From assembly GCA_000934665.2 (NCBI GenBank), contig KZ538494.1:1-64000 (forward strand): 64,000 nt of DNA, given 5' to 3'. The translations under genes and the position numbers were made by a program. Positions 5,261 to 32,485 of the stretch are shown here, piece after piece. How positions within the stretch are numbered: the first letter of the stretch is position 1; the number at the start of each line of letters is the position of its first letter. Below the pieces are notes generated by a model. It ran no database searches. It saw only the letters and a list, made by a program, of their open reading frames with translations, and had not been told where the DNA came from. Source of the stretch: Catajapyx aquilonaris (lineage: Eukaryota).

Positions 5261-8200
5261 CTGCAACACAAAATGCAAGTGATAAAGTGCTGCAATGTAG
5301 TTCATGTGAGCCATACGTACCTCCGTCTGGACCATGGCTGGACGCTGAGTGCGCAAAATGCGCACTGTCTGGAAGACGTCCACAACACCCTCGTACTGCA
5401 TGCGCTCCAGGACGATACTCAAGGTAATAAACACTCCGGTGCGACCTACTCCAGCACTAAGGAAGACATGAAAAAATGACGTCAGTAATCACGTAGTTGT
5501 AAATGAGGTAAAAAAAAATTAGTGACATATTGTAAGCCAACGTCATGTCTAAGGCTATGAAATGTTGGAAAACAAAATGTGTTAATGCAACATAATCTGA
5601 CCTGCAGTGCACTGTGATTGGCCCATCCTGCCCAAACTGCTCCTTGGTCTTGTGCACCTGTCCGATGAAGTCGATGAATCCTTCCCCAGACTTGGGAACC
5701 CCCTGCTCCGGCCAGTCGATAAACTGGAACTGCCTGACGGTGCGTGACTGTCCGTCCCTGGCATCGGTCACCTTGAACTCTCTCAGGATGTACTGGGGCA
5801 TGTTGTATTCAGCGATGGGCTCCACCACATAGCAGGCGTACCTGGCAGACCTCTCGCTGGGCCAGTACTGATGGCACTTCTCCCTCCCCAGCTCCTTCAG
5901 CTTGGTTAGCATCACCACAATAGTGGAATTGTGCTCCCACAGCATGCGCCAAAAGTCCTCTGTGGTTTCGGCCAGGGGACCTTGGGTGGCAATATATGCA
6001 TTGCGGTAACGGTAGCCATCGATGAAGCTGGCGTTGATGTAATCGCTGCCTTCCACTCCACGCAGCGGTGAGATGCACACTCGGGCAGACTCAAACGGAA
6101 GGATGTTTACTAGCCGGTTCTTAAACTTGTTGCATGGAAGGTTGGCACTCACAAAGCGGGTGGAGTCTGCCTTGATGTTGGCCAGCCTCTGCAGCGGTAT
6201 AGGTAATCATTGACAAGACTTCGTGATACTTTTTCGTATGTAAATGCCAATTGCATGCTGAATGTCACGGCAACATTTGGAAACTCATCACTAAATGTAG
6301 TGAACTGTTAGGAAAGTGCCTTTTGGTTTAAAAATTACTACTGTGCGCTAGTGTTGCCAAGACACTTTTCAATCATGCAGTGGAACATGAGCCTACTTGG
6401 AACAGTACAGGCCCAGAGTTGGCAATCTTGCAAATCCATCGATAGAATGTACAACAATGTACTTATGTAACAATGTTTAAAGAGGCTCTTGCAGGCATGA
6501 AAGTTGTGCAAGTACATTACACAAATGGTGCGCATTACATAAACTGCAGCTGTTGCAACCATTTGCTTAGCAGATAAAGTAATACCAAATGAACAGTGCA
6601 AGTATTTTTGCACCACTAATTTTCCACCAATGTGTAATGGACAAGAACATGTGCCACATGCAATAAAGGCATCCAATTGATATATGAATTTTAAAGCAAT
6701 GGCAGTCAGAAACTATTACGCAAAAGTGAGAGTGTGTTGCGCAAACATTGACGGCAATGCGAAAACGCAACATGTAATTTGTAATCAACTAGAGGCAAGG
6801 TCTTAATATGGACCGCTGGCCTCCCATTGCTTTAAAATGAGTAAGTGAATAAGGAAGAAAAACACAAACACAGAGACTAGGAGTGTGTAGTGTACCATAA
6901 ATACCTTGAACTCCAGCTCCATCCCCGTGATGTTCTCCCCCAGCTCGGTCTGCATCAGTTTCTGTATGTGGTTGTGCAGGTTACGAGCAGGGATTTCTGT
7001 GTGACCGCAAATTACAGCCTCAAGCAGCGCATCATGGATGAAGATGTACTGGTCCTCGGTCTGCACCATGTAGTTCCTCTGAGCTCGCAGGCAAGTAACA
7101 TGGCCGTATATGTCCACAGTTTTCTCGTGCTTGAGCCGCTCTAGCATCGAGTCGATAACAATGAAGCAGCCTGTGCGACCAACTCCTGCGCTGCAATGAA
7201 CCACCATGGGTCCAGCCTCCATTGGGTTCACATTCTTTACGCGGCGGAGGAACATCAGGAAAGGAGCCGGGTGGTCAGGGACACCATGGTCTGGCCAGGC
7301 CGTGAATTGGAACTGGCGGACTTCTCTCCTCTCTGGGTGACCAAGCTGAGAGGTAGCACAACATGAAGGTTAGTTGTCTTCATTATACCGCCTTATATCA
7401 TGAACAACAATTTACTTACCCTTTGCAGTTGGAATGTACGTATGCAGTACGTAGCCAGATCCTGAATGTCCGTAAGAGTGACGGACACAGGCCCATATGT
7501 CTCAGTCCCTCTGGATGGCCAGTACTGGTCACATTTGATCCTGGCCCTCTCCTCCAGGCGGGTCATCATGACCACGGTGGCACTTCTGAGCTCCCAACAC
7601 ATGCGCCAAAAGTCAGCAAAAGTGTCTGGAAGGGGCCCCTGGGTTGCCACGTACGCATTGTGCTTGCGGTAGCCATCGCAGAAGTTGGCATTGATGTAGT
7701 CGCTACCAGGAAGTCCCTCCACCGCCTGCAGCACCACACGAGAGTGGTCGTAAGCTATCACATTGGCGTATCTGTTCTTGCTCTTGTTCACGTCTAGGTT
7801 GGAGTTGTCCCATGTAAACTGCTGCCCTGGTTCAATACTCTGAAAAATTTATCACAGAACATCAGTTTAGTTTGATACTGGGGGCAGCTTTCCCATACTT
7901 GAAACAGACATCAAATGTTGAATCACATGCACATGGCTTACCTCATACTCTTGCGAGAAGAGCAAGTTATCACTTGACTTCAGTCGGTCGATGTGATTGG
8001 AGAGATCAGCCACTGGGATGGGTGGATGTGACATCATCCCTGGAGTCTGGAAGTTGAGCCTGCGCATCTCCACTGGATCCGACGCAGGGTGAAAAGCGGC
8101 TGCACTGGCAGTGCCTCCTCCTCCGAGAGTCCCTGTCCCTCCAACCCCTCCGCCACCCAGTCCTCCCAGTCCTCCCAACCCGCCTGCTCCAAGTCCTCCC

Positions 8201-11200
8201 AATCCGCCACCTCCTGCTCCACCCACACCTCCGTATTCCCCAGGAGCCATCAGGGGCTTGGTGACCGAAGCCTGCTCAGGAGTCTTGGGCATCTGGCGTC
8301 TTCTGCGTATTACCAGGATGAAGAAGACTAGGCAGCAAGTGACCATCACGGCAGCCACAACAGGACCTAGCACCCAGAGCATGCCAGGATCTTCCGCATT
8401 GCGATCTACCGCTACATCTGCACTCTCCACTGGCACATAAGGATTTGGGCGATGCGGAAGCTGGCCAGGTGGGATCTCACGCATGTCTAGAGACAACTGC
8501 TCAGAGAATGGGCTTGAAGTGTACAAATGCTGGAAAAATAAAGAAACACACAAAGAGGTCAAACTCTGAAGTCAGGTGGAGGTTGCATGACATCCCATCC
8601 TGGTGTGTGTGCATCAAAAATGCTTAATTCTCAAGGGAAGTACGTGGGAATCTGTCAGACGTAAGTGCCTTCAAATGGTTCACATATATTCCTACGATCC
8701 TGCATTGTATTCTATTTCATTACCTCATACAAATTGGCAATATGATCCTTTAGTGCTTTAATGTACGTTAATTTAATGTAACCAGGAACATTGATCACAG
8801 CAGACTTTACACTAATTTACTCCATCGACTAGGGATGCATAAACGGGTAGCAGAAGCCATGGATGGCACATCATACAACATCGACTTAGTTATTAATTGG
8901 TTCGAGTAGTGCACGGTGAGAATTGTTGACAAATAACACTGGATGCGCCCCACTTTCTTCATATTCTCTCCAACAAAAATTCGTATGGTAACAGGGGTAC
9001 TCTCTAGTATGCCAAGGGCAATGGTCCCACTGTGTTTACAACAGTTTACCATTAATATAATTAATCAAGATCAAGCTAGTCTTCATTGCTTCATTACTGC
9101 AACTAATTCAGTAATGCAAGTAAATGCTACATTTCTCTGGCTATTATTATAACAAAATGTACCCCATCCAACAACTGTCAGTCGCAAATCTTTAACAAAC
9201 ACTATTTCTTAACGACATGTCTCAATTCCATTTGCTTTTATGTCTAGGATGAGCTCCTCGACATCAGAACGCTGTCAAAATTATGCAGTACAAGACATGC
9301 CCGAAACCTACTGTACACGTATATCAGAAGAGGAAAATCAGTCTACAGCCAGGGACGCTTGTCATGCTTATGCCTGAGTGAGGGAATGCAAGTTTATGCA
9401 CTAGCGTAGGTGGGGCAGGGTCCATTACTACTTTCATATGGGGCGGAAACCAAAAATTGAAGCACATCCTGGCATTCACACTTAGCTTATTTACGGGACA
9501 CGATTCAATTAGTGCATGTCATGTAGGTGTAAGGTGTCTCAAGAATCAAGTCAGAGGGGAAAATTCTTCTCTCCATGCGCAGACAATGGATTAAGAAACA
9601 TTCTGTTCAAAAAACAGCGTATGTAAGTGGATAGTGATGCGTTAATGAGGTTGGAGTAGAGCAAGAGTAAGAGTAGACAGAGAGAGAGAGAGAGAGTATA
9701 GAAGAACGTGAAAGGTGCGTGGTGAGTGTACTTGCTTTGAAGGCTCCCACCTTCTGAGGCGTGTCAACCACAGCCCTCACAAAGATGCGGTATTTCTTCC
9801 CCTTCTCCAGACGACGGTTCTCAAAGCCCTCGAATGTCTTTGAGTCCCCCAAGGGGAACGTGTATGGGATGTTGCGCTGGAGGAATTTGGCCGCTATGTA
9901 CGGAGTGTTCTCATCCTCCTGCTTGTTGTTGCCATTCTTGTTGGCTATCAGCTGGTGGAGAAAAGACGGAGAATTTGATGTAGACCTGACATATTTTGCA
10001 CACTTATTAATGTAAATCGGCATGAGCATATGCGACATCATACCATTTTCAGTGCCCTATCACACTGTATGTAAAGGAAAGAGTAAATTAATTTATTTGG
10101 TAATGTAAAGTTAAGACTATGATGAAAAAAGTGGAAAATTACGCTTTCCATAAGATTAAATGGTGGCCATAAATGCAAAAGTGACACATACGTCATCAGT
10201 GAGGAACTGGTCCGGATTTTTGTGCAAGGTTCGCTTGTCTTCAGGAACCACGATGAGGTAGTAATGCGAGATTGGCCCATATTCCTCCGAAGCCTGTGGC
10301 AAGAAAACCACAATTTCTTCCGCATTCTGAACTCCAAAGAAGTCTGGCTTCACCATCGGTTGAGGAGCTTTTGCAAAAGAAGGTCATGTATTACAACAGG
10401 TGCAAACACTATTATGATGCAATTAGTTCTTACCGGCCATTTGAGTTGTGACTGATATCTTGGCAGGAGGTCGATAAGAGTGGTCCGTAGGAATGGCGCT
10501 TACGTTAACATTGTAGGTTGTGAAGGGAGAGAGTTCATTGATTGTGTGGGATTGGGAGTCAGGAGCGAGGAGGATGGTCCTTGGAGTAATCATCTGGGTT
10601 TGCGTAATTCCCTGAGAGTCCACAAACTCTTTGACAGCATCGAAAGAAATCTTATAGTTGACAGGATTCAGGCGGAGGGGAGGGCCCCAGGAAAGGGTCA
10701 TGCTGTGAGTGCTGACGTCATGAGCTCGCAGGTTAAGCGGCACATCTTCTGGCTTGACCTTGGCAGTCACACGTTCTGACAGGCGGCCCAGACCCTGAAG
10801 GTAAATATTTATGCAGAATTGAAAATCACTAATATTGTAACTATCATAAGGTCAAGTGCAAAGCACAGACCTATGATTATGTAATGAAAACACATGACAA
10901 TACACACCGACTTGGTCCTAGCAGCCACTGCGATGGCATACTGGGCGTTCTTCTCAAGATTAATGAGATCCGCTGATTCTGTGATGGGAACAGCCTTCTG
11001 CTGCCATTCGTCCATGTCCTCCACAGCCGTCATGGTGTAAAATATCTGGTAGCCAATGACCTTTCCACGGCTAGGCACTGTCTCCCACCAGACCTCCACA
11101 CTTGAATCAGACGTGGCCATGGCCCTCACATTCATTGGGGCACGGACAATTTCTCTCTCAGTGCGGAACTGGACATGCTCTCCATATGGGCCAGGGCCTT

Positions 11201-14200
11201 GGCGAGTATATGCTCGTACTTGAACAACATACTCAGTGTTCTCCTCCAAGTTGGAGAACACGGCCTTTAAAGTGGAAGGAGTTGGCTAGAGAATAGTTGC
11301 AAAATTTATACAATGAGGTAACAGCGTAAAAGTGTATGTGGGAACTCACCTTAGTGGAAGTGGTGTTATAATTTTGAGCAGCAGCATGATCAAGTCGCTT
11401 GTGGAACAGCACTTGGTAATTAGTCAGTTGGCCGTTTCGCATGTCAACCGGTGGAGGCTTCCACGTTATGGCCACAACATCAGCTGTTTGGAACTGGTAG
11501 GACACCTCGGAGGGTGGCCCAGATGGCACCCCTTCGGGGGTCTGGAAGAACTTGACTGCTTCCTGTCCAAAGCCAACGCTGTTCCCTCCAGCTACCCTGA
11601 ACTCGTACTCCAGGCCCCTTTCCAACTGGTCCAGCTTGTGGTGCTGCACTTTTCCTCCTTCCAGCACCAGCTCCTGCAGCTGGTCCCCACTAGGCGTGCG
11701 GGGACCCCAGCGCAGGCGATAGGCTGCCAGTTCACCAAAGGTCTGGGTCGGTCGGCTCCACTCCAGCTCCAGACTCACTTTAGAGTCAGTCTGAAGGACC
11801 CTGTTGGTGTGAAATGTTCGGTTATATTACGAAGCTCTTAACATACGGTCAAACATCGAGTAGGGTCACAATTAATATTCTCTTGCTCACAGTCACTGTT
11901 TTGTCACCAATGACAAAAATCCTTCTTTGACACGAACACTTTATGTCAAAAACGTACTTGTAATTGAGGCTTGGACGTGATGGGACACCACCAGGAGTCT
12001 TCACGTTGACAGGACTGCTGCGTGATCCATCTCCTTTTCGAGTCAGGGCAGCCACTTGCACTGCGTAACGGGTGTCTGGTTGTAGACCACTCACATTCAG
12101 CTCCTCCACATTGCCGTTAGGCACATTATAGTGAAGAGGATTGTTCAGAAGGTTGCCACCCTGCAAGAGATGAGTAATTCAACTTATTTCAAGTACTAAA
12201 GTTACTATCAAATATTCATTACACATCTGCATTGCACATTAGTCACTGGTACTTACAGTTGCCTATTTTCATACATTGTTGCAGCAATACACAGAACCCG
12301 AATGACAAATATGACTTTTAGTTCTTTGACCCAAAATAATAATGCATTGGCTCTGTTGAAACACAGATGTTCTGTTGTATTATGTAGGTTTTCCCTGGCC
12401 TTTGAAATATTGCATGTTGCAAAGCATTTCAAAATAATTAGTAGAATTTACCATAACAAGCTTGGCAGTTCAGGCGTGATATTAATTTTTCATTTGCCTA
12501 ATTTGAAATCAAGGCAATGAAAAGTAACTAACTAAACACCATCCTAAAGCCAATGAATCTTTAAGGTATAAAGTTTAACAACTTTATGATACATGGCCTT
12601 ACAGACTAATGCGGAAAATGGTAAATGCTGTACAAACCTCTTCACTAACTTCCTGAACATGAATCTGGTAGCCTCGTATTATCCCATTTCGGTCCTTCTC
12701 CACCGGCGGTTTCCACTGAACATGGATGGTAGTTGAGTTCATAGCCGTCACTTTCACTTCCTGAGGCTCTCCAGGGACTATAATGTATTGTAGTGGTGGG
12801 TGGAGTGGGTGGGCAGAAGGTGAGGGGAGAGGGTGGGGAGGACAAAGAGTAGTTTGTGAATGAGAGAAGAGAAAGAAGGCGGAGGGCAGGGAAGGGGGGA
12901 GGGCACAAATTTTTTGCTCAGATTTGCTGTTGTTACATGAAATATCAGTGGCAAGTCACCAGACACTGGTAAAACATGTACTCTCTGGCCGTCCCATGCA
13001 CAACCTCCTTGCGTTTCCCTCTGATTCCTCCTGCTCATGATGCTGAGACACATGGCATGCGCAGCTTTCACACATATCTCTTACATCCCATGCCAGAGTC
13101 AAAGTGTATTTTATTTTCAACGTTTTAGACCGGTTCTGAGTTGTGAATTTATGCCTCGAATAAGGCATGCTACACTCAAAATCATACAGAACAGAGCAAC
13201 TAAAATATGCCCAATACAAATTGAGTATCAAACTCCTGTCACCGATTACAATAGTTGAAACTTGAATGCTCTGCTTTCCATTCATCTCCATGAGCCCTGC
13301 TCATCAACTTCGCATTATGTAGTAGACATACATCTAGTACCTACAGTACAATATCCATCCCTTATTAAGTTTCCAGAGCCGTTATAATATCTTACATCAA
13401 ACTGTTGTACAACCGTGCCATTTGTGCGGAATAAAACTTTCTGTCAGATTACATTCTAATCATACCTGTCATGTTATTAATTGCTTCCTCACCATTATAG
13501 TGATTCACGAGGTGCAAATCTTACATGTGATCCAGACCAAGATGCAAATTAAAACATGTTATGGTATAATGTTCCTAAGTTTCTGATGGCACCGTGTTGC
13601 TTATTTAGCGCAATGCATTAGACCCTGCATAAATAATGTTATTCAAGATTGCACAGATATGACAATACTCACAATTGATAATGATTGTGGAGACGGAGTT
13701 AAAGCAAAATGCAATTCCCTTTCACCATCTACGAGTAAATCCTGCACCTACATTGACGTAACACTTTGACTTTGACAAAGGCTCATTCACACCCAATCAG
13801 GTGCCCTACATGATTTTTTAAAAAAGTGAAATGTACTGAGTTCCAGTACAAACTACCACTAACATTACTGCCTTACTGCAACCTAAACACAGTCTAAAGA
13901 GCAACACATATGAGCCAACTGAAGTGGTCTACACAAATGCTGGTTGCTTTTGCATGCCATTCTGGCTCCATTTTCCTGCAACTGTTGGGACACAAAGAGA
14001 AAATAATTAGCTACTACCCCTTAATATAAACCTGCAAAGAAAACTTTCTGTAAATGAAAACAAATATCGGAAGAAAAAACTACAGACACTCAGTATAACA
14101 TCTATCAGCCCATAATAATGTTACTTGGCAGCTCTAACCAATGCTGTATAATTATATATACTGCAGTGTATGTAAACCCACAATAAGATGCTGAAGGCAT

Positions 14201-15042
14201 GAAAGGGCACATAATTCACACCAATCACACAGCTAACGTACTCTAGTCAATTTACTCAAGAGGCAGAAGCCCGGCATCTCGACAAACCCACACACTGTAC
14301 GACGTTCATTACAGATGACTTTTTTCACTGGACTATGTATGTTGCACCGAGCACTGCAAGATGCTACAGAGGTGTGACCCAGAGGCAATAAGGAATGGGG
14401 GGAAGAGCCCCATGCAATACGCTGCCTTGGGAATCAGCAAACGCAATGGAGATTCTGCCTCTACAAACAGCAAAGACGGCCAGCCACAATGTAATCAATC
14501 CCTCGTCATCCATAGTATTCATTTTTTTTTTTTCATTAGCCACCAACTACGTATTACTCCTGAATTTGCTTTGCGCTGATTCTCTATATACACTATAAAA
14601 GTAACGGATAGATTACTTACTACAAGTAGTGACAGTTTCAATATCTAAACGTGATCTCATAATCACTCATTCCATTCGGTTATTCTATAGGAGAGCAACT
14701 CGAGAGAACTGAAAGAAGCTCTGGCAAACTCTAGGTAATACCAAATCTCTCCTCTGAAGACAGAATGAGAAATAGGTATAGAGAGTGAGAGAGACAGACA
14801 CAGGGCAATTAACGAATCAATCAATGATAGAGAATAAAAAACAAACATTTGAATACCAACACATGAGTGATTAGATTGTTACTTTAGCCGAGATTGTCTT
14901 GACAGGTTACAGCACACAGGCCCAAGTTGGCAAGGACTGCACTCGACTCCACTCGACAAAATTCAATCACAGTCAAGAGAGACAGAGCGAGATAGACAGA
15001 CAGGTAGTCAGAGAGAGATAGATAGAGATAGACAGAGTGAGA

Positions 15043-15074
<32 letters not shown>

Positions 15075-18000
15075 AAGAGAGAGCGAAAGATAATGAAATA
15101 AACAAGGTGAGGCAACGACATGGTAACCAATAAATCCACACTGAATCCTACAGAATGGTCGAGATGGGATCTATGCAGCTACTCTACAGATTGATACAGC
15201 AGTACAAGAGAATAAGATGCATTGGAAACAACGAACGGGACTGGTAAAACTGGCTCGGCTACAGCAACAGTTGGGAGATCGGGGAGTGTGATGAGAAAAG
15301 GAAATGCTACGGCAACAGTGAAAAATGCAACTCCACAGCATTCGCCAAGTATACTTACTGCGAACTGTTCAGAAGGACCCAAAGTTTTGTTAGTCGGGAA
15401 AAAAAGTGGAAAAAATGACAATGTGAGAGAACAGGGCTGCTCACGTCAGACAGGACTACACTACGAGTACACTAAGAGTGTTGGATATATTATATTTGAC
15501 ATATATCTGGCTGTTCCTGTGGTGTTGGTTGGTTGGTTGGTTGGTTTCTGGTTTATCGGGCGTGTGAGGCTGCATAGTGCTTTTTTTTATTTATTTTTAA
15601 TATCGAATATTTGAGTATTTTTAAAATTTTCTGTGCAATTTAATTATTATGAAAATCCCTTTCTGTATTGTGATGATGGGGCTTTATTTATTTTTTTCTT
15701 CTTCTGAATGTTCTGTCCTCTCCTCCCACTTTTCCCTCCCCCAACCCCACCCCCTTTCCCTGAAAGAAAGAAGACGAGTCTGTGTGCTGTAGCTTTTGGC
15801 CAACATGCATGCGCTCTCGTGGGCGCTCTCACATAACAGTATATCAAATCCGTATTTCTATGGAGGTGTACTGCAAGTGTCTTTGGCGCAAGTAGTAGTT
15901 GGCTGCCTTATTTGTTTAGTGCCCAGTGCAGGTGCTCAGGAGTAACGTGTGGTATTCAAATGTGCATGGTGCCTTGACACGTACGACTTCCTCCTCCTCC
16001 TCACGCAACCTTCTGTGGCTCGTTCTGACTGCTTGTTAACATTCCACCAACCATTAGGTTGCGCACTATACCTGAGCGAGGAGGAAGCGTCCTGGTGACA
16101 AAGCCATTGTGTGGTAGTAGCAATAGTAGTAGTAAGTAGTAATAAGTAGTAGTAATAGTCAAGTACTGTAGTGCTTGTAACAATCCCATAAATGGTGATA
16201 AAAACAAATTCATGACATCAAGACCCACAAGCGGTGCATAGTGCAGAATATTATAATATTCCAAAGCAATAAAGTGCAAGTGACACACTGTGGAATAGAA
16301 AAGCTGGTGGTAGTCTTTAGTGGTCATTATTTCACTCCCTGTGATGTAAAGTGAGAATGTAGGTGAATGCAAAAAAATCAACCTGGGTAGTTGATGTTGC
16401 TGCATCCACACTGTATCATCTGGAACACAACAAATTTTCTGTCGCCATCACAGTCAGTGGCATATGCTGGGTACTTCCTGGACACTCAAAAGCATCAAAG
16501 GTCGCGCTTCAATAGTCGACCAACAATATGCCAAAAAAAAAAAAAAAGTGACAGTGTCAGTGAGCAGGAAGTACCCAGAAAAATATCCTCTGGTGTGTAT
16601 GCACCCAAAGGGGCCATTTGCAGAGAGAAACCAAATGAGAGGGGGAGTTGTGCTTGTGTCATTGTGGTTATTCTGAGAGAATGCAACAAGCGGTGGTGGG
16701 AGAAGCATTTGGCTCCTATCTGGCGAGCAGATTTGAGTAAAGTGGCCTCATGATTTGGTGGTGGTGATGGTGGTGGTGGTGGTGGTGGTGGTGGCAGCGG
16801 TGGTAGTGGTAGTGGTAGTAGTACTGATTGTGGTCATGGCAGTGGTAGTTGTGGAGTGAGAATGCATTAGCGAGTGAGAAGAGACAGAGAGCAGAGAAGG
16901 AGAAGGATCGGGGGTAGTGTTAGTAGATAGTATTAGGGACAGATGTGTGGACACACGTTTCCCCAAGCCCAGAAAAACCAAGCATAGGAAATAGACTTAC
17001 AGCCCACAGTTTTTCCTCCCTTTTTTTAAAAAGTATACAAGCAAAACTTGGTCTTCAGCATCTCTGCATTTCATACTCATCGTCAGCCTTACACTCTTTG
17101 GGACCTGCTCAGGTACATGTGGGACTCACATACAATACTTTGAAACAACACTAGACAGTTCAAAATACATATTTTTGATCTAATAAAACTTTGCGTCTGG
17201 TAGCAACAACTCTTGTCTAACAAATGCAGCAATGGCATAACAGGTGGTTACACAGCAATATTAACAACAATTGTGAACACTCTTAGGAACACAGAACAAT
17301 ATTATATATATATATATCTGCCCATGACTTTGTCATCATGCCAAAATATAACGTGCATGTTGCATTGGCTTATAATCTAAGTACCACGAGGTAACCTCTT
17401 AACAATGTGAAGCTGCATTTAAAAATCAGTGGCTGTGATAAAAATACTCTCATCAGATGTTTCACAAAATACTACATTCAGTCCATCCGTGTGCAGAATT
17501 CATCCTTCTGCTCCAACTTGTGTAAAGTGGCAGTAGTTTTATAGTTTGTTACAGTTCCATCATCTAGTGATTACCTATCAATACTGCAATATTGGACCAT
17601 TCCAGAAATTGTCTCTCTTCATAAAATAAATGTGCCAAGTGCACGCTAACATAATACTGATTATTCCAGTCGACTAAGTGACATGAACTGGTAAAATTAT
17701 GTCATATGGCTGAACTTCCTTTGCTACGAATTTCATCTAAAATATAACTTGAAATATTTGGGGCAAGCTAAATACTGAACATTGCAAAAGCACATAAGAA
17801 TACTTGCTCCCTAGTTCAACCAGAACCTAAGGAAAAGAGATAACTTACAGAGCATTGCACTAACTTTTCATATATTGCGTAACTTCAGCTAATCGGTATC
17901 TTCACTAAAAAGACTTGTTTTTCTATGAACAAATATGATATTTCCAGACTTTAAGATAGAGGAAAGAAAATGATTTCCATGGGAATTGCTCTTTAAAATA

Positions 18001-21000
18001 AGGTTAATCTGACACTGGTCGTAACAGTATGAAATTACTTAGGTCCTGGTTCTCCTTGCAATGGCCTGATGCTAGCTACAAAACATTCTTACACGTCAAT
18101 TTGCCCTGACTAATAACAAGCACCTTCTGGATGACTAGGGGCAATGCTACAATCCTCATGATTTGGTCTGTTACAGATTCAGGTCAAGCGAGATCAACTA
18201 AGGTCAAACTAGGTAATAAATATAATCAGAAGTTACGCTAAAGAGTAGGTGCTCAGAAATTGTCAATCATGTGGCAGAATGCCAGACACAAATTATTACA
18301 CTTCACAAAACCGCGACAAATTATTCTCAAATTCAGTGGATGCATGATGACAAATTACACTCAAGCAATTATTGAATACAATGACTGACATCTTGCTAGA
18401 TCTTGCTTTTGGCATGATTTGGCAAGCATAAAAAAAGATTCACCAAGTGCAGATTGATAATTCCAATCCATGAAAGGTACAGTTCTGTTATTTGATATTC
18501 CTGTACAGAGATATGCACAATGTACATTAACATTTCTCCGATATTTTTGTACTACCCTTGTGAACACAGTATGATACAATTTATGGCTGGTTTGTGATTT
18601 AACATCTGAATGTGATTGGACAACAATGAGCTAGTGGCAGTAAATGAGACTTGGTGAATCCCAGAATAGGCAGAGTGTTACAATAACAAATTAAGCATTG
18701 GATACATGGCTCGAAGACAGTACAACAAAAACACAGCGAGATTTGTGGTCTTCTTTAGATGTGGGTATCTGATTTGCCCTTCCAGGAAGGTGGAGGACCT
18801 AGATATGGCGGAGGATGAGGAGGAGCAGTAGGCCCGTCATAGTAGTAGAAGGCAAAATCCTTCCGGCGAGGCTCTAGCAGTCGGGGCATGGGTGGGGCTC
18901 CTGAGTGGTGTGTAGTCGGGTCAGAGCGCCCTGGGAGGTCTTCAGTCATGAAGTAGCCAGAGCCACGCAGAGAATCAGCCAGGCCAAGGACATCATTCCT
19001 ATCCTTCAGGCGTAAGAAGGTAACAAGAACTGGACGCCTTTGCAGGGAGAATGCACGACGTGGACCAATCCTCACAGCTCTCTCTACCTCCAAGCGTGTC
19101 TGCAAGCCCAGGTGGTGATGAAGGAACACCTGGAAGGCGCTCTCCGTCAGGGCGGGATCCTCCTCCCCCTTGCTGCCTCCCCCGCTCTCCCCCTGCTCCT
19201 CCAGACCAAACAGGATCAAGTTGCGACGTCGTAACTGCAGGTCCATGTCAGCCAGGCGTGCCTCCGCTTCCTTCAGGCTGTCTCCAAGAGACACAGCCAG
19301 CTGGGAAGACTGTGTCTGCTGGTAGCGAGATATCTGAAGATCCTCCTTGAGCTGGTGCAGTTCCTCCGCCTGGATCTGTCCCCTCTCCTCCAGGCGCTCC
19401 ACCCGAGACATGGCCTCCTCCAGGAGCGCCCAAACTTCCCCTGCCTCTCCTCCTCCTCCTCCTCCTCCTCCAATCCCTACTGGTGCTGCTCCTCTTCCCA
19501 ATCCTTCCCCCCACATTGGACCAACTACTTCTCCCACTTCTCCTCTCCTTCCTCCTCCTCCAACTCCTCCATCCTTTACACGTTCCTCCTCTTCATCATC
19601 ATGACAACGCCCTGCCACCTTCCCCTGCGCCTCGTCTGGGCTGCTGCTGCAAGCACCCGCCTCTGCAAGGGAGCAGCAGCCCAAACTCAACGCTTGCTTC
19701 CCTCACTCTGCATTTGCCTCCACCTTCACGCCTTTCATCCCATACACATCATAACGTTTGCAATCCAATGACAAATAGCACTGACACTATTCACTGACTT
19801 TTAACAGGTCCAAATCAAGGCCCACTATAAGTCAAAACATTCCTTTGGAAAGAAAATTGATAGTAGCAAACTACACAATGAATTATCGTATCTAATCACT
19901 ATAATAATTAATTACAGTGTGGCTTTTTGCAAAGAGGCTACTAACTGGATGTCAGGTAACTACATAAGGCACTGCAGACCCATCATCTTATAAATCACTC
20001 CCTCATACCAATTCACACATTATCTTGCAATGATAGAACCCAGGCGGTGATTCAGGTGTTGTGTTGCCATGTCATGCATACAAAGTCTTCCACCTTGGAA
20101 TCACCCTACACATCACATATGCAACTTCACTTCAAAGACTGCTCTATTATCCCATGATATCTCCTGTGATTACTTGAGGGAGGGCGGTACGTTAGTGTGG
20201 GTCAGCAGTGCCTTATGTTGGCAACCAATTATTTCATTGCCACCTTGTTACAAAGTGATTTCAGATACTCTTTACTCAACTAGGATTATTGATGGCTCTC
20301 AGCAATTGGTTTAATTATTATAGTGCACACAAAAACTCTGCAAAAAATCCAAGTGCACTGGGTGCATCATCACTGTCACTCTCATAATCATGCCATTGCT
20401 TCATGCACAGTGACCTCATAAGCTTTCACTCTTATCAAGTAACTTCATATTTACAGTATGTGATACTGACGTGCATGATTCCTTACTGTGGTCTTCGCAA
20501 AAATGATGTAACTTCCAAAGTATGGCTTTTGACTGACCAAAAAACAATGTAACAATAAAGTCAAAGAAGACCTGAGATCACTACTGGGACATTGCAATCC
20601 CAATACTTTGACTTACCAATGGCCATGTTTACCTCTGACCATTACACAGCATTTGAACCTGAATGAGTCATTTTGTCAATGCTATTTGTACATAACTGAA
20701 TACAGGCTACTAGAATTAGGTGATTAAATATTTGCATTACTTCTTTGGTGGAAATGGCGATAACTCACATCTGAACATTAGCTGAAGTGGCTTGCACATC
20801 AAAGAAGAGTCACCCACACAGTCACCCGTCACATGTGCAGACTATATCTACTGTATCCACTATAAGCCAAGTCCTCAGCTCAAAATTCCTAACTGCTTGA
20901 GCCTGCATGCGGCATGACTATATCATTGCAGCTTACATACCCCACTGTAAGCAGACCAGTCAAATCTCGCTGTAAGGAGTCGGCAATGTCTTTTTCTAGT

Positions 21001-24000
21001 CAAATTCAACTGTTGATCACAAACCTATTTTTCACCACCTGCTTTGCCATCTCTGCAGTGATAATAAATCATGAGTGGAAGATCACTTACTCTCACAAAG
21101 CCATATTTAACAAATAAGAGCTGGACTCATTATCCATGTGTTCCCTATGATGTGCAGTGACAGATTATATAGGCTTTTCCACAGGTATTATTCCTAGCTA
21201 AAATTCTGACTGCACTTACATTACAACGGTTAATAATTGACTTATGCTTATCTGCAGTTACTTTCATCTTACAATGTCATATGACCCTGTGTTACATCTC
21301 ATAGCCTCAACTACAAAGCGCTATAAAAATGAGAAGATAACAAATACCAGAACAGCTCACTGCAAAATTGGTCATAGTGGAAAATCATTTCTCGCATTAA
21401 TTACTACACAATGTCAATCCACGATCATGGAAATAATGATATGGAACAACACCATGAAACAGAGGACAAATTGTCAAAATGACCTGTAACTAATCATAAA
21501 GTGTTATAATTTATTGTACAGAAACTTCAGCAAGGTGCCAATAAAGAAGATTGGGATTGAACACAGTGTACACTATCATAAAAATGAGTTCTGGTTTTCT
21601 CTTGCTAGTCTTAATTCTAATTGACGCAACGTGTCAGAGCAACATAAAGAAACACAATCCGTGACTCCCTTGGGGAGAATAGACTTGAAATTAGTCATAT
21701 TTGGAGTAAACAAAAAGAAAACAGATGTTAATTGAAGTTTCATAAAAAGCAACAGTTGGACCTGATAAAATTAATGTTAATGTAGTTGATTCACACTGAC
21801 CCAACTGTTTCCTCTTTGTTTCTACCTACACACAGCTAGAAACTTGCACCAAAAGGAAGTGGCAAATGGACGCTCATAACTACTGAGCACTGACTTATGG
21901 ATGGTGATTATGATGTAACTAGTAATTGCACAAAATATTTTTCTAATAGCAGACCAATTTGCACATTTATAAATTGATCAACTCTAGCTAACACTTGTAT
22001 TTGAATAATATGAAATACATCCATGTAGCATGTGCTACGATTTCAATACTTGCACCTGAGGAAAGGCTGACACTGTGCCATGAAGTTGTTATTAGAGAGA
22101 ATAGTTTTTCAAGAACTATGCAGATTGTTATGAAACTTTGAAGGACACCTGTTCCCCATGCACAGAGTATGTTCCAGTCAGAATTGTGGCCAGGGAAAGA
22201 AAAAGCACAGAAAGTGAAGTGTGATCTTCCACTGCAAGTGCAGCTGAGAAAATAAAGAGTCCCAGTGTATCAAAAGAAAGAGAGTCCCAATGGAGAGACA
22301 AGGTGGTAGAGTAACGCTCTCCTTCTGATTGTAGGACGGTGTGGATCAGCAAGGACGAGGGATACTTTAGGATCGTGGATTTGGAGAAAGAAAAGGTACT
22401 ATTGCAAAACCATTACCAATTTCCTGCACAACCCACATGCAGTGAGACATGTTTACTGATGATATAATTATGTGGTAGTCCTTTAAATCTGTATTTACAA
22501 AAAGTCAAAAAATTTAAATATGCTGCCTCAAAAAAACAGGATCAAAAACTCCATTTTATGACAATTATTACTCTACTGTCAAGAGCAGCCAGCAGATAAC
22601 TATACAGCATGGAGGTATATTTTCAAGTGCTAATAATATAATTTGTTATAAAATAATATTACTTGTGGACAATTTATAAAAGTTCTTAGATCTGCCTCAT
22701 TGTACACTAAAACATGAAATGCAATTACAAAATATGTACAAAAAATTCAAAGACTAATTTTAAATTCTGGAAGCATGTAGGCCTTGACAGCACTCATCAA
22801 GGTTAAGAGAAAATTTACAGAAGCATGTTAAAATTTATCTGAACTGAATGGTCACTTATAATAAATTTGTCATGAATCATACACAGTATTGGATTCTCAT
22901 GGAGCTTATTATGACTAGCTCCTATTGACTTGTCCTTCCTTAGATGAGGGTTACACCAAACATCTTGTACGCTCCACACTGACTTTCTGGCATCCAAACA
23001 TAGTTTTATTATTATTATTATTATTATATTTTTTAAAGCCAATTTCATCATAATGGAGAGGGTGGTATTTTCTGCAGCGAAGTATCTTTCAAGAGTCCAT
23101 GAGATTTCAACCTTATGTAACATATTTAGCACCCATACTTTCTCAAAAAAAGTAGCTTGCAGCTAATTAGTTTCAATACTGATGAAGTACATTTTTCTCA
23201 GTATAAAATTACTATGCTGGTATCTGACACAACATTCCAATTTCACTGGAGTTCAACAATACTAACATATACTTTCAGTAATATTTCAGTTTCAGTAAAA
23301 ACTGCATGTGAAATGCAGCAAAAATCTTTAAAACTTTCTGAAATTTCCAATCTCAATGTCACTGAAGAAATTCACAGAAATGTTACATTTCCCCACTCAG
23401 GTGCAGCATGAGCCTAATTACTGCAGTATATGTGATGTATACTCATGTGATTAAAAGTATTGCCATTGGCAGTAAAAAATCCATTTTGTTTCACCTGAAT
23501 AAGTTTAGGTTATGACAACCACTAACTGCTGACTGAACATCTTGACACACCAACGGCAATGGGTTACCACAGAATGGTCATGGTTCAGGGTGTGATGGTT
23601 GAATTTATGGGTAAGGTTTTGAGGTTGAGGTGAACAAGGTTAAGGCATTATAGGGTGTAGGGGGGGAAGGAAGGAGAGATAGATACATACCGTCCTCGTC
23701 GGTAGTGACGACGACTGGGTAGCTGGCAGGCCCATCCCCAACACTGGTGCCCGCCAGCACCCAGACTCGATACTGGGTCCAGCGCTTGAGTTGGTCCACC
23801 AGGAAATGGCGTGCATCAGGATTGGAGATAGTGATAGTGGCAGCCTCAGAATCTGAGCGCGAGCTCTCCACATAATGCAGCTTGTAGTAGCGAATGTCCC
23901 CGTTCTGTTGTTCAGCGGGCGGAGGGAGCCAGCGCACAAGGATGGACGTGGAGTCCTCAGCCTCTGCGCTCACGTTCTGGGGGGGGGCTCCTGGGACTGT

Positions 24001-27000
24001 GTGGCGAGCGGGACATGTGCGCATCTTTAATGTGCTGCCTCTTAATGTGGTGGTGGTGGTGGTGGTTAGCAGTGGTAAATGATGGTTGTGGGTGTGTGGT
24101 GGGGTAGTAATGGTAGCAGTGGTGACAGTGACAGTGGTAGTGGTAGTGGTGGTGGTGGTGGTGGTGGGAGTTTATGTTTTAGTGGCTGGCTGGCTGGCTT
24201 AGGTGTGGTAGGTGTCTGGGCTATATTACATTTTTAAAAATATATATATTTTTTCAGGGCTTGGTCTTGGGGGAAGGATTGAGTAGTGGAAGGTCACCTA
24301 TAACTGCAATGCTATAATATTTATAGTTTTTCTTAAGTAAAATCATTCAATGCAAAGTTGAAAAGTCCAAAATAACAAACACTTTCACCTCAGACTAGAT
24401 GATTGTGATAGAGCACAAAAATTCTGTCAATGCAGTTGGGTCTTGTTAATGTGCGTACAAATTATGTTGGGAATATTTCCTTTAGGGCTGGTTGCACCAC
24501 AGTAAGGTACAGCGTCAGGTGTAGGTCGGGCATTATTATTAATTGTTCGAAATAACGAAAATATAATTAATAACAAATGTAGACCCACACCTTAAGCCCT
24601 ACCTTGAGCTGAGGCAACATATAAATTCCTACGAGTGCCGACGTGTTCTAGGGTCACAGATATAATATTTCACAAAAGTAGAATCAAAATTGCAAACAAA
24701 TGCCTGGAATTGAAAATTATTAACACATTTTCTAATCTATATTTTCTGAATTTTGAATCTCTTTTAAAAAATATTATGCATTGCAGAAAGGTTTTTAACC
24801 AGGTTTATAAGTATCCACTCATGATGGTACATTTCCATACTCATTTTAGTAATACCAAGAGATCATGTTAGGTAATGTTAAATTTTAAAATACTATTCGT
24901 TAAAATATGACTCACTACAACAAGTATGTATGTAAAAAACATGACACATCCATAATTCATTTAAATGCAAATTAAGGAACTAATATCTTTATGCAAAGAG
25001 AGGTTACTGATTACTTTGAACCTGTGTTCAAACAAGTGGAGTATGGTTATCCAAACTTTGAAAAACATATGCAAATACTTTCTACGCTTTAGCTAATGGA
25101 ACAGGGGAGTAGGGAAGATGCACAAGGAAAAAAAGGGTAGGGAGCATGGGAAGCAGTACGATGCCCTGTGTTACTGAAATGAGTCTGTCTGCTTTAGTGT
25201 GGATCCAGCTAGCACACTAAGGGAACATTTTTGGGAACATTTTCCAGTGAAGGTTAAAACACTCATAAAATAATAATAATAACAACAATAATAATTATGC
25301 AGCAATCCTCAAAAAAATCATCAACAAAACAAATATGTGAGCATTCATTCTCATTTTCTTTTTTTAAAAAATTTAAAAAAAGACCAAAGAGTGAGCAAGC
25401 CAATAAAATAATTTTGACCAATCGCTTCCCAGTTTAGGCTCTGAAAAATGCATTGGTGCGTTACGTGCCAGCCTGAAACTGCTCAGAGGAGAGTGGCCAA
25501 AAAATGTGCATCAGAGCATATTGGAAACCCCAAACTGTTCCCACTCGGAATTTCAAGTGAAAAGCATGCACTTGGGGATGCTCCAATATGCCCACTGGTA
25601 AACCTATTAAATCTAAGTGAGGTGGGATAACTCTTCTTAACTTGGAAGTGGACAGAGTGAATCAAAGAAGAGTTAAAGTGGTGTACATCACAACTGCAGC
25701 TGTGCAAAACAGTGGTGAGACAGGACTGGCTGGTGCATCAATATCATCACCATCATTATGGGATAAATCAAAATTACATGCAGGTATATATTGTAAAAAA
25801 AAATAATGAACATCCAGTCAGTCAGGTGGGAGCTGGGGGTCAGAGTAGTGAGAGACAGTGATATCTATATATTCTTTCCGTCTCTTGCTATAATTTTTTT
25901 GATGCATTTTTTTGTTTCCTTTTACTCATTATATGTGATGTCCTGATGCTGTTCAGTTTTTTGTGCCAATTGATTTTATATCCATTTTTCTTAGTCACCG
26001 GGGACCAGGTTGGAGACATGATTTGTTTCGCTATGTAGTCTGCAATTGTGGTGTTAGTGTCCCTGTATTGTATTGACTCGATGGATCTGCTGCTATGGTA
26101 GTCAATAGGCGACCAGGGCAAGAGCCGTGTTGTGTTCACATCAATGGGGCCAGGGGAGTTGGTTGGTGGGCAAAGGTCAATAGTAGTCCAATTAGAACAG
26201 TGACCTTTCTTGGCATGTCAACAATTCTTATAACACCAAGTGTTAGGAATGACAAAAGAATTCTTTAACTACTTGAATATCAATCCTGCAGTGAAAATCT
26301 TTAGACTTGATCCTTCATAATATTTGGGAAAATATTGTTCCAAAATTATGGCTAGTTAGATTTTTAAAAACTTGCCATGCCATTCATATTAAGTGACATT
26401 TTAGATAGCTTCACATACACAGATGTCATAGGTTATGCATGACCAAAATTTATCAGTAGCTGGAGTACAGTCGAAGAAGGCTAGTTTTCACTAATGATTC
26501 CTCTATGTGACTATCAACAGTGTAGACTGCTCAAGGAAAAGGGTCACCCTGTACTATCCCGGATCCCTGGTAAGCTCCCCTGGCCCCTCCTAGAACCACC
26601 ACGAGGGGCACCTACCTTCATTTTCTCACCTGTTCCAGCTGATACGAGAGAGGACCTCTGTCCATCCATCCATCCATTCTCCCTCCCTCCCACCCGCACT
26701 TCCACATCCTCACCATTCCCCCCTTCCCATTACCTTCCCTCAAGTATTCCTACTCCAGAAGACTCAACCCTTATGTCCCTCTAGGAGGGAGCAGTGCACA
26801 AGGGGACTCCCCCAGAAGCCTTACCGTACTGCTCGGTTCTGACGGGGATGGGTGGAGTGGTGGCACCTTCTCCTCTCCGCGACTTTGCTGCCAGCCATAT
26901 GAAGTACAAGGTGTTTGGATACAAGCCGGGCAAACTGTAGCTCTCTCCCAGTGAAATACTTCGATGGTGCTTCTCCTAAAGAGGGAGCCATATTTAGTGT

Positions 27001-30000: not shown

Positions 30001-32416
30001 AACCGGACCAGGGGCACGAGGAACAACCCAGTGCTTATCTTGCATCCAGTGTGTCAGACACACACAAAACTCTGGCAATCAAACGAGTAGTAGTAGTATG
30101 GGGTGCACCACGTTCCTTGCACAAACCAATCCTAACAAGTACAAAATAACTTACTCGCACCTCCAAATGCAGGATCGGCTAGAAAAGACAAGGAGAAAAC
30201 AACGGATATTGGTTATACTTGGTTAAAGCTAGTCAGGATTTGGCTTACTGTACATGGTTGAAGGAATCTATATTATTTTACTTGTATGTACCCACCAGTA
30301 CTTTTGCACTGTAGTAGCTTACAGTACTTGACAACTTCATTGGTGGTTACAACCACACTTCCCACACTACGTTAGACATGCTTTCGCGAGAAATGCATAG
30401 TAATCTTGTATAGTAAGCTTGATATTAGTAGTAAACACGTCAGCCAGTAATTCACTTTTTCACGAGTGTCGCACCTGAAGGGCTTGCAGTTGATTAATGC
30501 AAACGCATATTTTTAGCCAGTAACCATATTGAAATATTAATAGGAGGAAAGAGCAGTTTTGAACCGCCTGGAGACTAGCTTCATTTCATAACATTTGTTC
30601 AGGTATTCCTGCAAACGCGGTCATTACGTGCAAATGGTATTAACAAGGTTCCTTAGAGGCAGATATGTGTTTTTCCTGCCTCGCTACACTGCTGCAGCTT
30701 CTCTTTGTTCTGCATAAAAAAGGGCCTGCATTGCCTGGATTACAAAATTTATTTATTAGCCACGGGCTAGGTGAAAAGCAACGCAAAAAAAAAAGTTTAT
30801 AGTATTGAGCAGGGCACTTGCGCTGTGTGCGAAAGATTAATCGGCATGTTTCGAAGCTCATTAACTAATTATTTTAATTTAGTGCCTCCCAAAGCACAAC
30901 GCATACTCTACTTAATTACTGGGCTGGAGAGTTAATCCCGTTCGCGTATAAAACTCGCCTTTACGCAGATGCCCTTGCAGCTACGGTAATTTTATCCCAT
31001 ACGGACCAGAAGGCATAGCCCGGATTTTTCCCCTCCCCCTCAACGTAACGCTCATATTTCCCTCCCTTTCTCCTGGCTGATGTGGACTACTCCGTTATAC
31101 GCTGGGTAACATTCCAAAAACTGCGACGCATATCGAGTCTCATGTTTTCCCATAAAAAAAACAATACAAAAATTCCCGAGATTCCACGTCCCTAGAGCTA
31201 GTCTTTTGTGATGTTCGGTGCGAAAATTTATCATCACATTAAAAAAAAAACAGCAGCTCTGTTTGGCGTAGTCATATTACAGTATATTGTGACCATTGTA
31301 ACGAAATGGTCACAAAATAGCTCTAACTTTGTGGTGGCAATGTGTGCCACAACTGTGTAAGTCTATGCTTGTATCCTGCATCAGCTTTCTACTACGATAT
31401 TCAATTAACTAATTGCATTTAGAGCGGCAGTCTCGTACCTTTCGAAATGTTCGTTGAAGCATTAGCGGTACCGCCTTGGCGTGCCTTTATGATAATGGAT
31501 GAGAATCAGATTTCGCAAGATGCGTATAGGTGCAAACCAAGTAGTTAGTTCATGTGTATATGGCATACGTTGCCATTCCAACATTCGCCAGTGCGGCATC
31601 GCAAGAAAGTGATTACTTTTGGCGTAGTTAGTAAAGCACTAATTTTAATGTATGCTGGTCCAGCATGCATATTAGGCAAGCCATATTGCCAGAGTCGTTT
31701 CTCAGATCTGGCATTATTCGTCAAGCGCACCACATTCCGTATGTACTGTACAGAGAAACTCGAAAAATTCCAACTTCCATCTTGAATAGGATACTTGAGC
31801 AGTACCCTGCATTGCACTCTTCGATTTAGATTACCATACGAGCATATGAACAGCCTCCCCATTTTTTTTTGCATGGCTTGCACGCTTAGTTCCCAGGACA
31901 TAATGAACAATTATGACACAAAACCCAATTACTTAGTTCTGAGTTTTTTTTCTCTCTCCCCTACGCTTAACGAGGCCTGTAAAAATCGAGCTCCTAAAAC
32001 GTATTGCATAAGCCGAGATTACTCACTGGTTTCTCCGGTGGTGATGTAGGCTGGCGTGCTGGGAGGTCCACGTCCGATCTTGTTGACGGCAATCACGTAG
32101 TACTCATACTCTGTGTACGGGTTCAGGCCTCGGACGGTGTAGTACATGGTGATGATGCCACTGATCTCGGAGTATTCCTGTGTAACGCAGGTTGTAATGG
32201 CGTTTAAATTGTCAGTTTCTCGGAAGGAATCCGGTAAATTGTAGGTACGTACCTGGTTCGCATACTTGGGTTTGTACTGAATAACATAGTAGGAAATGTC
32301 GTCTGCACCGATGTCGTAAGACCAAGCCAGACGAACGGATGTAGCCGTGACATCGGAAATGCGCACGTTGGTCGGTGGCCGTGGCAGTGCTGTTCAAATA
32401 TTATATAAATGTTGGC

Positions 32417-32485
<69 letters not shown>

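Follow-up and report, generated by a model that had tools for sequence, protein, structure and literature searches.

An intact L1-like ORF1p frame in a Lar intron of Catajapyx aquilonaris: a possible nested coding unit rather than a Lar exon

Introduction

An open reading frame resembling the ORF1 protein (ORF1p) of LINE-1 lies within the gene for a Lar-type receptor phosphatase in Catajapyx aquilonaris, raising the question of whether it serves as an exon of that gene, stands as a coding unit of its own, or is left over from a transposon. Type II ORF1p proteins are described for non-LTR retrotransposons of the L1, CR1, L2, and R1 clades (PMC4120745), and co-option of LINE ORF1p by a host is rarely reported. 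Described cases are L1TD1, which eutherians carry as a domesticated gene derived from L1 ORF1p and standing on its own (PMC4161310, PMC11014241), and four vertebrate fusion isoforms, Lyosin (MYL4), L1-RFX5, NUP42-L1, and USP4-L1. For these isoforms, Kitao et al. (Genome Res 2025, PMC12129022) describe support from annotation, RNA-seq, or RT-PCR, along with conservation that reaches back tens to hundreds of millions of years. Our literature search turned up no description of an ORF1p exon in any Lar/RPTP gene, nor in any invertebrate. A sequence-only reading of the locus had proposed that the frame can splice to an upstream Lar exon and might yield a secreted Lar ectodomain–ORF1p chimera. Here, we examine this proposal and its alternatives within a 64,000-nucleotide stretch of contig KZ538494.1, referred to below as the window.

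Results and discussion

The frame lies in sense orientation within a canonical Lar intron. When an insect Lar protein (P0100) was compared to the window with tblastn, residue 542 mapped to 23692 and residue 543 to 12778, and the frame therefore falls inside the canonical intron of ~10.9 kb between FN3-4 and FN5, on the same strand as the receptor gene (Table 1). The FN3-4 exon ends in gacgaggacg/gtatgt, with 23691 as its last base, and the canonical partner of this donor is the acceptor at 12779-12778; the exon for the second half of FN3-3 ends in cagtacg/gtaagg, with 26825 as its last base. Both donors are in phase 1, in agreement with the sequence-only reading, and the minus-strand frame at 18755..19702 and the in-frame stop at 19705-19703 can likewise be read directly from the sequence. 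The count of 58 codons lacking an ATG needs correcting to 62, the first in-frame ATG being codon 63 (19516-19514).

Table 1. Features of the ORF1p-like frame and of the neighboring Lar exons (window coordinates)
Feature	Position	Strand	Details
Stop-to-stop open frame, ORF1p-like coding unit	18755..19702	-	315 codons (19702-18758) + stop taa 18757-18755
Upstream in-frame stop tga	19703..19705	-	
First in-frame ATG, codon 63	19514..19516	-	context ccaATGt, weak, C at -3
Second in-frame ATG, codon 98	19409..19411	-	context gccATGt, G at -3
Perfect trinucleotide microsatellite	19447..19471	-	(CTC)8.3 on +, (GGA/GAG)n on -
Predicted coiled-coil domain, single long helix, codons 86-158	19229..19447	-	heptad register
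Predicted RRM	18941..19222	-	homology and model
Proline-rich C-terminal tail, codons 255-315	18758..18940	-	low model confidence
Acceptor-like site	19663..19684	-	14/20 pyrimidines + cAG at 19665-19663
Lar FN3-4 exon	23691..23996	-	acceptor AG 23998-23997; phase-1 donor after 23691 (gt 23690-23689)
Lar exon, second half of FN3-3	26825..26975	-	phase-1 donor after 26825
Lar exon, first half of FN5	12638..12777	-	acceptor AG 12779-12778, phase 1

Sequence comparison and structure prediction together give good support to the view that the frame encodes a Type II (L1-like) ORF1p-type protein. A phmmer search of 1.84 billion representative sequences returned 96 matches at E<=1e-3 that span the coil and the RRM, the best with an E value of 1.4e-10 and 38% identity; save for a 25-residue low-complexity stretch, no relative above 38% identity was found among these representatives. 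The closest relatives, all at or below that identity, are unnamed invertebrate or metagenome proteins and one sea-anemone "uncharacterized protein." Most relatives stand alone, span 136-330 residues, and share the layout of the frame, and several carry 40-90 residues N-terminal to the coil. A family profile built from the frame and 40 of the phmmer relatives matched human LINE-1 ORF1p structures with E values of 2.4e-21 (2ykp/2yko), 1.5e-16 (2ldy), and 9.2e-12 (2w7a), the next matches being generic coiled coils at E>=2e-6; the earlier label of an ORF1p-like protein with a coiled coil and an RRM thus holds up, and the predicted fold agrees. All family-conserved residues are kept (R61, R62, N64, G69, E72, R114, G116, R126, L148, and D158, numbered from the ATG at codon 98, which gives a 218-residue form), and the RRM opens with the R-R-x-N-L-x-x-x-G-x-x-E motif common to the relatives.

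Pfam Transposase_22 (PF02994) did not match the 315-, 218-, or 116-residue form even at E<=10, Pfam as a whole produced only chance-level coiled-coil matches on the frame, and 4 of 39 relatives scored 17.3-21.5 bits against Transposase_22, under its cut-off of 22.4. Word-indexed protein searches with the 315-residue frame among proteins of near length and with the 218-residue form among longer ones yielded no match at E<=1e-3, in a collection that lacks the Lar protein of this species and in which the FN3-4 exon reaches a best identity of 65%. No relative was found in a single-protein scan of metagenome loci (489 patterns matched), and neither tblastn nor blastn revealed a second copy of the frame in the 64-kb window. 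In the ESM Atlas, the nearest clusters (0.91-0.93) consist of unnamed eukaryote proteins, some carrying Baculo_FP_2nd/Baculo_FP.

The AlphaFold2 model of the 218-residue form has a mean pLDDT of 83.4 and places a helix at residues 3-61 and the RRM at 64-157. The single modelled helix, 59-73 residues long depending on the form, and the RRM both exceed a pLDDT of 90. Its heptad register runs without breaks and is hydrophobic at 16 of 21 a/d positions, a pattern that is compatible with trimerization and would leave the oligomer state unfixed. In a Foldseek search of the PDB, the top 11 matches were all LINE-1 ORF1p chains (best E 1.9e-6, TM 0.51/0.55), with ~18-19% identity to the human protein in the structural alignment. 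Like LINE-1 ORF1p (2YKO/2YKP/2YKQ, 2W7A, 2LDY), the predicted protein presents a disordered N-terminus, a heptad coiled coil, and a non-canonical RRM in that order; unlike it, the frame appears to lack a folded C-terminal domain (CTD), falls below the Transposase_22 threshold, has no ORF2 behind it, and shares little identity with the human protein. Residues 160-218 of the 218-residue form were modelled at a pLDDT of 47-69 with no regular structure, and in this low-confidence, proline-rich tail only ~17 residues can be aligned, to the beginning of the CTD found in relatives, whereas a folded domain is what LINE-1 ORF1p has there.

We next consider where translation of such a protein would begin. 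No alignment of relatives extends upstream of residue 84 of the 315-codon frame, and the 72-residue linker that would follow the acceptor-like site is predicted to be disordered and has no homology. In the model started from the acceptor codon, residues 1-72 have a pLDDT of 45-54 and the helix starts at residue 73, so that 23 residues separate it from codon 63 and its first 12 residues precede codon 98. Initiation at codon 63 would therefore give a 253-residue protein with 23 disordered residues ahead of the helix, and initiation at codon 98 a 218-residue protein that begins 12 residues inside it. A codon model trained on 2005 Lar codons scored the core at 0.42 in frame, compared with -0.11 and -0.02 out of frame (GC3 0.62), and Lar exons at 0.15-0.63; as judged from this one gene, codon usage of the core resembles that of host exons. 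From the acceptor-like site to codon 98, the score was 0.17 in frame versus 0.29 in frame +1, with a GC3 of 0.39; this stretch is G/A-rich and includes the perfect microsatellite, which is read as poly-Gly in frame. Translation from an ATG of the frame itself, at codon 63 (19516) or codon 98 (19411), is the most likely start. Two features speak against an own start, namely the weak context of the first ATG and the loss of part of the helix from the second.

The 97 codons before codon 98 were free of stops in 194 of 20000 mononucleotide shuffles, and the other two frames of the same region contain 4 and 3 stops; composition alone would thus predict a less open upstream frame, and the excess fits either a coding region of greater length or a 5' end formed by splicing. 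One way to obtain such a 5' end is a nested gene with at least two exons, in which the acceptor at 19664-19663 is real and is fed, not by a Lar exon, but by a small first exon that lies upstream inside the intron and has its own ATG. The normal strength of the acceptor, the unexpected openness ahead of the first ATG, and the N-terminal extensions of several relatives would all suit such a gene, but we identified no candidate for that first exon, the residues following the acceptor carry no coding signal, homology, or structure, and the G/A-rich unit that begins ~100 bases upstream of the acceptor counts against it too. We consider this arrangement very improbable.

The other way is the chimera itself, in which the acceptor at 19664-19663 is joined to the Lar donor at 23691 (or 26825) and the frame forms an alternative terminal coding exon; the predicted product would comprise Ig1-3, FN3(1-4), ~72 disordered residues, the coiled coil, and the RRM, and would be secreted and possibly trimeric. 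Several of its premises are borne out by the sequence. The acceptor-like cttgcag/AG is present (gctgctgctcccttgcag, with the AG at 19664-19663), the putative exon would have 19662 as its first base, which is position two of a GAG codon and hence phase 1, and joining either 23691 or 26825 to this base would preserve the reading frame, with G + AG restoring Glu as claimed. With 14 of 20 pyrimidines and a C at -3, the site is within the range of the genuine Lar acceptors of this gene (10-18 of 20). Being on the Lar strand, the frame must also be transcribed within the pre-mRNA; its upstream part is open in only 1-2% of shuffles, and a GC-rich island begins near the point where the open frame does. 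There is precedent as well, since the ORF1p-like part forms the final coding exon in NUP42-L1 and USP4-L1, the layout proposed for Lar, and the first in Lyosin and L1-RFX5, as described in PMC12129022.

A phase-matched acceptor at this position is nevertheless only mildly unusual relative to chance expectation. Of 716 AGs on this strand between 12600 and 23690, 32 have an equal or better pyrimidine tract together with a pyrimidine at -3, or 24 when no AG is allowed in the 15 bases upstream, so that 24-32 sites of equal quality occur in the intron, about one per 350-460 bases, compared with an ATG-less stretch of 190-290 bases. Because upstream Lar donors are in phase 1 in 5 of 7 cases and in phase 0 in the other 2, an acceptor in either of two phases out of three would have seemed to fit. 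Moreover, the interval from the previous AG (ttgag, ~20 bases upstream) to the acceptor lacks an adenosine, and the 60 bases ahead of the acceptor show no YTNAY branch-point motif.

The surroundings and content of the putative exon also argue against a Lar junction. The G/A-rich, GC-rich unit begins near 19760, past the in-frame stop, and so extends ~100 bases upstream of the putative exon start; the linker has neither a frame-specific codon signal nor homology, with its low GC3, microsatellite, and poor model confidence; and the in-frame ATGs of the frame already yield a family-typical protein. A canonical poly(A) signal is absent downstream, and a secreted product would carry no glycosylation sequon and a PPPY motif that is meaningful only in the cytosol. 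The base rate is very low, with four such genes described from a vertebrate RefSeq screen (PMC12129022). Like those four isoforms, the Lar case combines an ORF1p-like coiled coil and RRM frame in a host gene with the same strand and a phase-compatible splice site, and Lyosin likewise lacks the C-terminal domain (PMC12129022). Those four, backed by transcripts and conservation, are vertebrate and intracellular, whereas a putative Lar fusion would put an RNA-binding module outside the cell. Five short insect Lar models that end right after FN3-4 (P0123, P0124, P0131, P0132, P0122) were considered as ORF1p fusions and rejected, as their ends are intron read-through (e.g. ...HEDGMYH) in truncated gene models. 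Taken together, the indirect evidence leans against the Lar–ORF1p chimera, and we regard both the splice and the multidomain product it would create as unlikely.

The flanks of the frame bear on whether it is simply transposon debris. The stop codon marks a drop of GC content to the intron level, so any element sequence that flanked the frame has decayed or was never there. No ORF2 was recognized: none of the 66 intron frames of at least 50 residues (12800-23690) matched any Pfam family at E<=0.01, none of 15 long frames elsewhere in the 64-kb window matched Pfam at E<=0.001, and no endonuclease or reverse-transcriptase remnant was found within ~5 kb on either side or in the window. Neither AATAAA nor ATTAAA occurs in the 2.2 kb that follow the stop, where the variants are limited to CATAAA at +172, AATATA at +881, and TATAAA at +1214. 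Upstream, Inr-like sequences (TCAGTG, TCAGTG, and TCATTG) at ~19797-19766 were rejected as a core promoter, none having a DPE-like motif at +28 to +32.

Such a locus could be a young, non-functional fragment of a non-LTR retrotransposon that retains only ORF1, for example after an internal deletion or aberrant insertion, an origin that we hold to be possible but somewhat unlikely. We view in the same tentative light the corollary that the frame is open merely for lack of time, being neither expressed as protein nor selected. The family assignment to LINE Type II ORF1p, the perfect (GGA)8 microsatellite within the frame, the missing canonical poly(A) signal, and the tail without a folded C-terminal domain all sit well with a relic, and since no relative exceeds 38% identity in 1.84 billion representatives, nothing shows conservation. 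On the other hand, LINE insertions are usually 5'-truncated and hence retain ORF2 rather than ORF1, as described in PMC4120745, and here no trace of endonuclease or reverse transcriptase accompanies the frame. If the flanks have decayed, as the drop in GC at the stop may indicate, an intact frame of 253-315 codons would need selection, and the full set of family-conserved residues and an RRM with a pLDDT above 90 count against a relic.

We therefore favor, at a probability of roughly one half, an independent retrotransposon-derived ORF1p-type coding unit that is nested in the Lar intron, uses its own ATG, and is not a Lar exon. Given its intact state, its host-like codon usage, and the lack of a recognizable ORF2 in the vicinity, the unit would be a derivative of ORF1 only, be it a domesticated gene or an ORF1-only element. 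If expressed, its protein would consist of a short disordered N-terminus, a heptad helix of ~73 residues, a non-canonical RRM, and, where the folded CTD would otherwise be, a degenerate tail rich in proline. By analogy with LINE ORF1p, the product may be cytosolic, oligomerize through its coiled coil, and bind RNA. PPxY motifs bind cytosolic WW domains, and sequence features lean toward a cytosolic rather than a secreted protein: the 315 codons contain no N-x-S/T sequon, Cys is absent beyond codon 33, and the tail contains PPPY (18803-18814). Besides the start-codon contexts noted above, the lack of AATAAA or ATTAAA downstream and the failure of Pfam Transposase_22 to recognize the frame are points against an independent unit.

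The favored nested unit resembles L1TD1 in being a stand-alone, intact, ORF1p-derived unit with no ORF2, whose product would, by analogy, be a cytoplasmic RNA-binding protein. L1TD1 differs in having orthologues, expression, and selection documented in PMC4161310 and PMC11014241, whereas the nearest relatives of the Lar-intron frame are at most 38% identical.

Conclusions

Were the chimera real despite the evidence leaning against it, the Ig1-3/FN1-4 ectodomain of an arthropod-type Lar would be multimerized by a retrotransposon ORF1p coiled coil in a short secreted isoform. Such an isoform would provide the first report of an ORF1p coding exon from outside vertebrates, as well as the first case on a cell-surface receptor, and would offer a new route to a clustered soluble receptor ectodomain. 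If the frame instead has its own promoter or is not expressed, it would be an ordinary nested gene or ordinary transposon debris, respectively. The locus is a reasonable candidate for host co-option in an invertebrate: its ORF1p-like frame is intact, lacks an ORF2, uses host-like codons, and lies in sense orientation within the gene of a neuronal receptor. Any such co-option may have taken the form of a nested gene or, less likely, of a terminal exon of Lar.

An ORF1p-like coding unit within an intron of Lar

We put at roughly 0.5 the probability that the 315-codon frame is an ORF1p-like coding unit that is independent, has a start of its own and has been maintained. Two insect Lar proteins map by tblastn to the minus strand of the window, where they outline a gene for a Lar-type receptor phosphatase, with Ig domains near 44-34.8 kb at one end and the second phosphatase domain near 5.2 kb at the other. 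Residues 542 and 543 of one insect Lar protein (P0100) map to 23692 and 12778; together with the position of the FN5 acceptor, this places the frame, in the same orientation as Lar, within the canonical FN3-4/FN5 intron (~10.9 kb).

Features of the frame and of the flanking Lar splice sites
Feature	Position	Strand	Basis
Stop-to-stop frame, 315 codons	19702-18758	-	sequence read
Stop codon (taa) of frame	18757-18755	-	sequence read
In-frame tga 5' of frame	19705-19703	-	sequence read
Acceptor-like gctgctgctcccttgcag, final AG	19664-19663	-	sequence read
First in-frame ATG, codon 63, C at -3 (weaker context)	19516-19514	-	
Second in-frame ATG, codon 98, G at -3	19411-19409	-	
FN3-4 donor ...gacgaggacg/gtatgt, phase 1	last base 23691	-	sequence read
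FN3-3 donor ...cagtacg/gtaagg, phase 1	last base 26825	-	sequence read
FN5 exon, acceptor AG 12779-12778, phase 1	start 12777	-	tblastn + sequence read

The FN3-4 intron position and its gtatg donor, source of a G-M-Y read-through, appear conserved. Gene models of Lar tend to break at this intron, and five insect Lar models (P0122, P0123, P0124, P0131, P0132) end just past FN3-4 by reading into it (...HEDGMYH, ...HEDVN, ...HEDGMYCTIC). Elsewhere in the gene, a Gly/Leu-rich low-complexity juxtamembrane insert (8100-8230, minus strand; exon frame 7867-8571) is uncovered by the mapped insect proteins (HSP gap 8245 to 8082), and a tRNA-Ala (anticodon TGC; 1288-1359, plus strand; Rfam 49.1 bits; ARAGORN) lies downstream of the Lar 3' end. 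Many long simple repeats (ATT/ATA, AAT, ACC/GTG, AG) in the Lar introns mark the genome as microsatellite-rich; an assembly gap of 62 N sits inside a poly-purine/pyrimidine tract, and such gap or repeat places fall at about 44900-45000, 32400-32480, 44500-44580, 24050-24170 and 14976-15090.

Homology and predicted fold

Pfam does not recognize the frame; phmmer against 1.84 billion representatives returned 96 matches at E<=1e-3, all distant (best 38% identity, E 1.4e-10) and spanning the coil and the domain after it. A profile built from the frame and 40 of these relatives matched human LINE-1 ORF1p (2ykp/2yko, E 2.4e-21; 2ldy, E 1.5e-16; 2w7a, E 9.2e-12), with only generic coiled coils ranking lower. 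In a Foldseek search of the PDB with the frame's model, all 11 top matches were chains of LINE-1 ORF1p, the best at E 1.9e-6 and TM 0.51/0.55, with ordinary RRMs following from E 9e-3; the helix keeps an unbroken heptad register, hydrophobic at 16 of 21 a/d positions. These profile, Foldseek and heptad results make the ORF1p-like coiled coil plus RRM assignment of the sequence-only reading well supported. The predicted product thus corresponds to the Type II ORF1p architecture, which PMC4120745 places in L1, CR1, L2 and R1 clade elements, except that the third, C-terminal domain has no folded counterpart in the frame.

Among the 60 of 96 relatives scanned with Pfam, four (P0003, P0024, P0029, P0089) carry a C-terminal NADAR domain fused to the coiled coil and RRM (E 1e-28 to 2e-40) and one (P0046) a SAND domain N-terminal to that module; none has an FN3, Ig, endonuclease or reverse transcriptase domain, and sub-threshold Transposase_22 appeared in 4 of the 39 scanned first. 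Judging from these predicted proteins, the module is evidently joined to other domains elsewhere. P0024 is located on contigs up to 1.5 Mb. Feature-based ESM Atlas neighbours of the frame include clusters with Baculo_FP_2nd (PF25298) in 55-80% of members, a hint that ORF1p-like proteins of invertebrates may be distantly linked to FP25K-type proteins of baculoviruses.

Start codon, coding signal and LINE remnants

As had been claimed, the frame opens without an ATG behind a confirmed upstream stop, but over 62 codons, not 58. In the model the helix starts at codon 86, which lies 23 residues downstream of codon 63 and 12 upstream of codon 98; the later start would cut the helix short, and the earlier would give the more natural protein, 253 residues comprising a short disordered N-terminus, coil, RRM and tail. 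The relatives, mostly 136-330 residues, have a layout matched by either start.

Scored by a codon model built from 2005 Lar codons, the core (codon 98 to stop) reaches 0.42 in frame versus -0.11 and -0.02 out of frame (GC3 0.62), the in-frame value lying within the range of Lar exons (0.15-0.63). GC content is 0.52-0.67 over 19700-18750 and 0.33-0.46 on either side, the 3' drop coinciding with the frame's stop codon. No Pfam family matched any of the 66 frames of >=50 residues in the intron (12800-23690) or the 15 long frames taken from the rest of the window, and the 64 kb hold no second copy of the frame. A typical 5'-truncated LINE insertion would not leave an ORF1p frame that is intact and host-like yet lacks any trace of ORF2; this suggests a maintained ORF1-only unit, a young dead LINE fragment being a less likely alternative.

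Splicing to Lar

The sequence-only reading had proposed that FN3-4 or FN3-3 can splice to the frame as a terminal exon, possibly yielding a secreted chimera. The sequence features that it cited all proved to be present, and its phases are correct for both donors and for the acceptor-like site; an exon from 19662 would open with the middle base of a GAG codon and give the junction ...TTDED-E-AGAC.... The site has 14 of 20 pyrimidines and C at -3 (Lar's own acceptors, 10-18), the frame shares Lar's strand, and in 20000 shuffles the 97 codons before codon 98 came out free of stops just 194 times, the other two frames there having 4 and 3 stops. However, by the same crude measure 32 of 716 intron AGs are equally good or better (24 when the 15 upstream bases must be AG-free), or one site per ~350-460 bases; since Lar donors upstream supply phase 1 (5/7) and phase 0 (2/7), the chance that the ATG-less stretch of 190-290 bases contains a compatible site is of order 0.1-0.3 or more. 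As read from the sequence, the bases separating the preceding AG from the acceptor-like AG include no adenosine, and a YTNAY motif is missing from the 60 upstream bases. That the site instead serves the first exon of a nested multi-exon gene seems to us very improbable.

The linker, from the acceptor to codon 98, lacks a frame-specific signal (0.17 in frame versus 0.29 in frame +1; GC3 0.39) and carries a perfect (GGA)8.3 microsatellite, within a G/A-rich unit that begins near 19760, ~100 bases upstream of the putative exon start and past the in-frame stop. Its first 72 residues model at pLDDT 45-54, and no relative aligns upstream of residue 84. No AATAAA/ATTAAA occurs within 2.2 kb downstream, which tells as much against an independent gene as against the chimera. 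No N-glycosylation sequon occurs in the 315 codons, and the proline-rich tail carries a PPPY (PPxY-type) motif (18803-18814, minus strand), features that would suit a cytosolic protein. PPxY motifs are WW-domain ligands and viral late-budding motifs.

No longer protein containing the frame occurs in the 5.8-billion-cluster collection, where the FN3-4 exon reaches at most 65% identity to any protein (named matches, insect Lar, 54-64%), and metagenome contigs yielded no relatives of the frame. These identities make the organism probably an arthropod with its proteome missing from that collection. There is precedent in ORF1p-like final coding exons of NUP42 and USP4 in some mammals, but a screen of all vertebrate RefSeq proteins recovered ORF1p fusion isoforms from four genes only (PMC12129022). 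The indirect evidence thus leans against a Lar-ORF1p chimera, which we regard as improbable. The locus is a transposon ORF1p-derived frame within a host intron, of a kind already known, and its interest would rise sharply if reads joining Lar to the frame existed.
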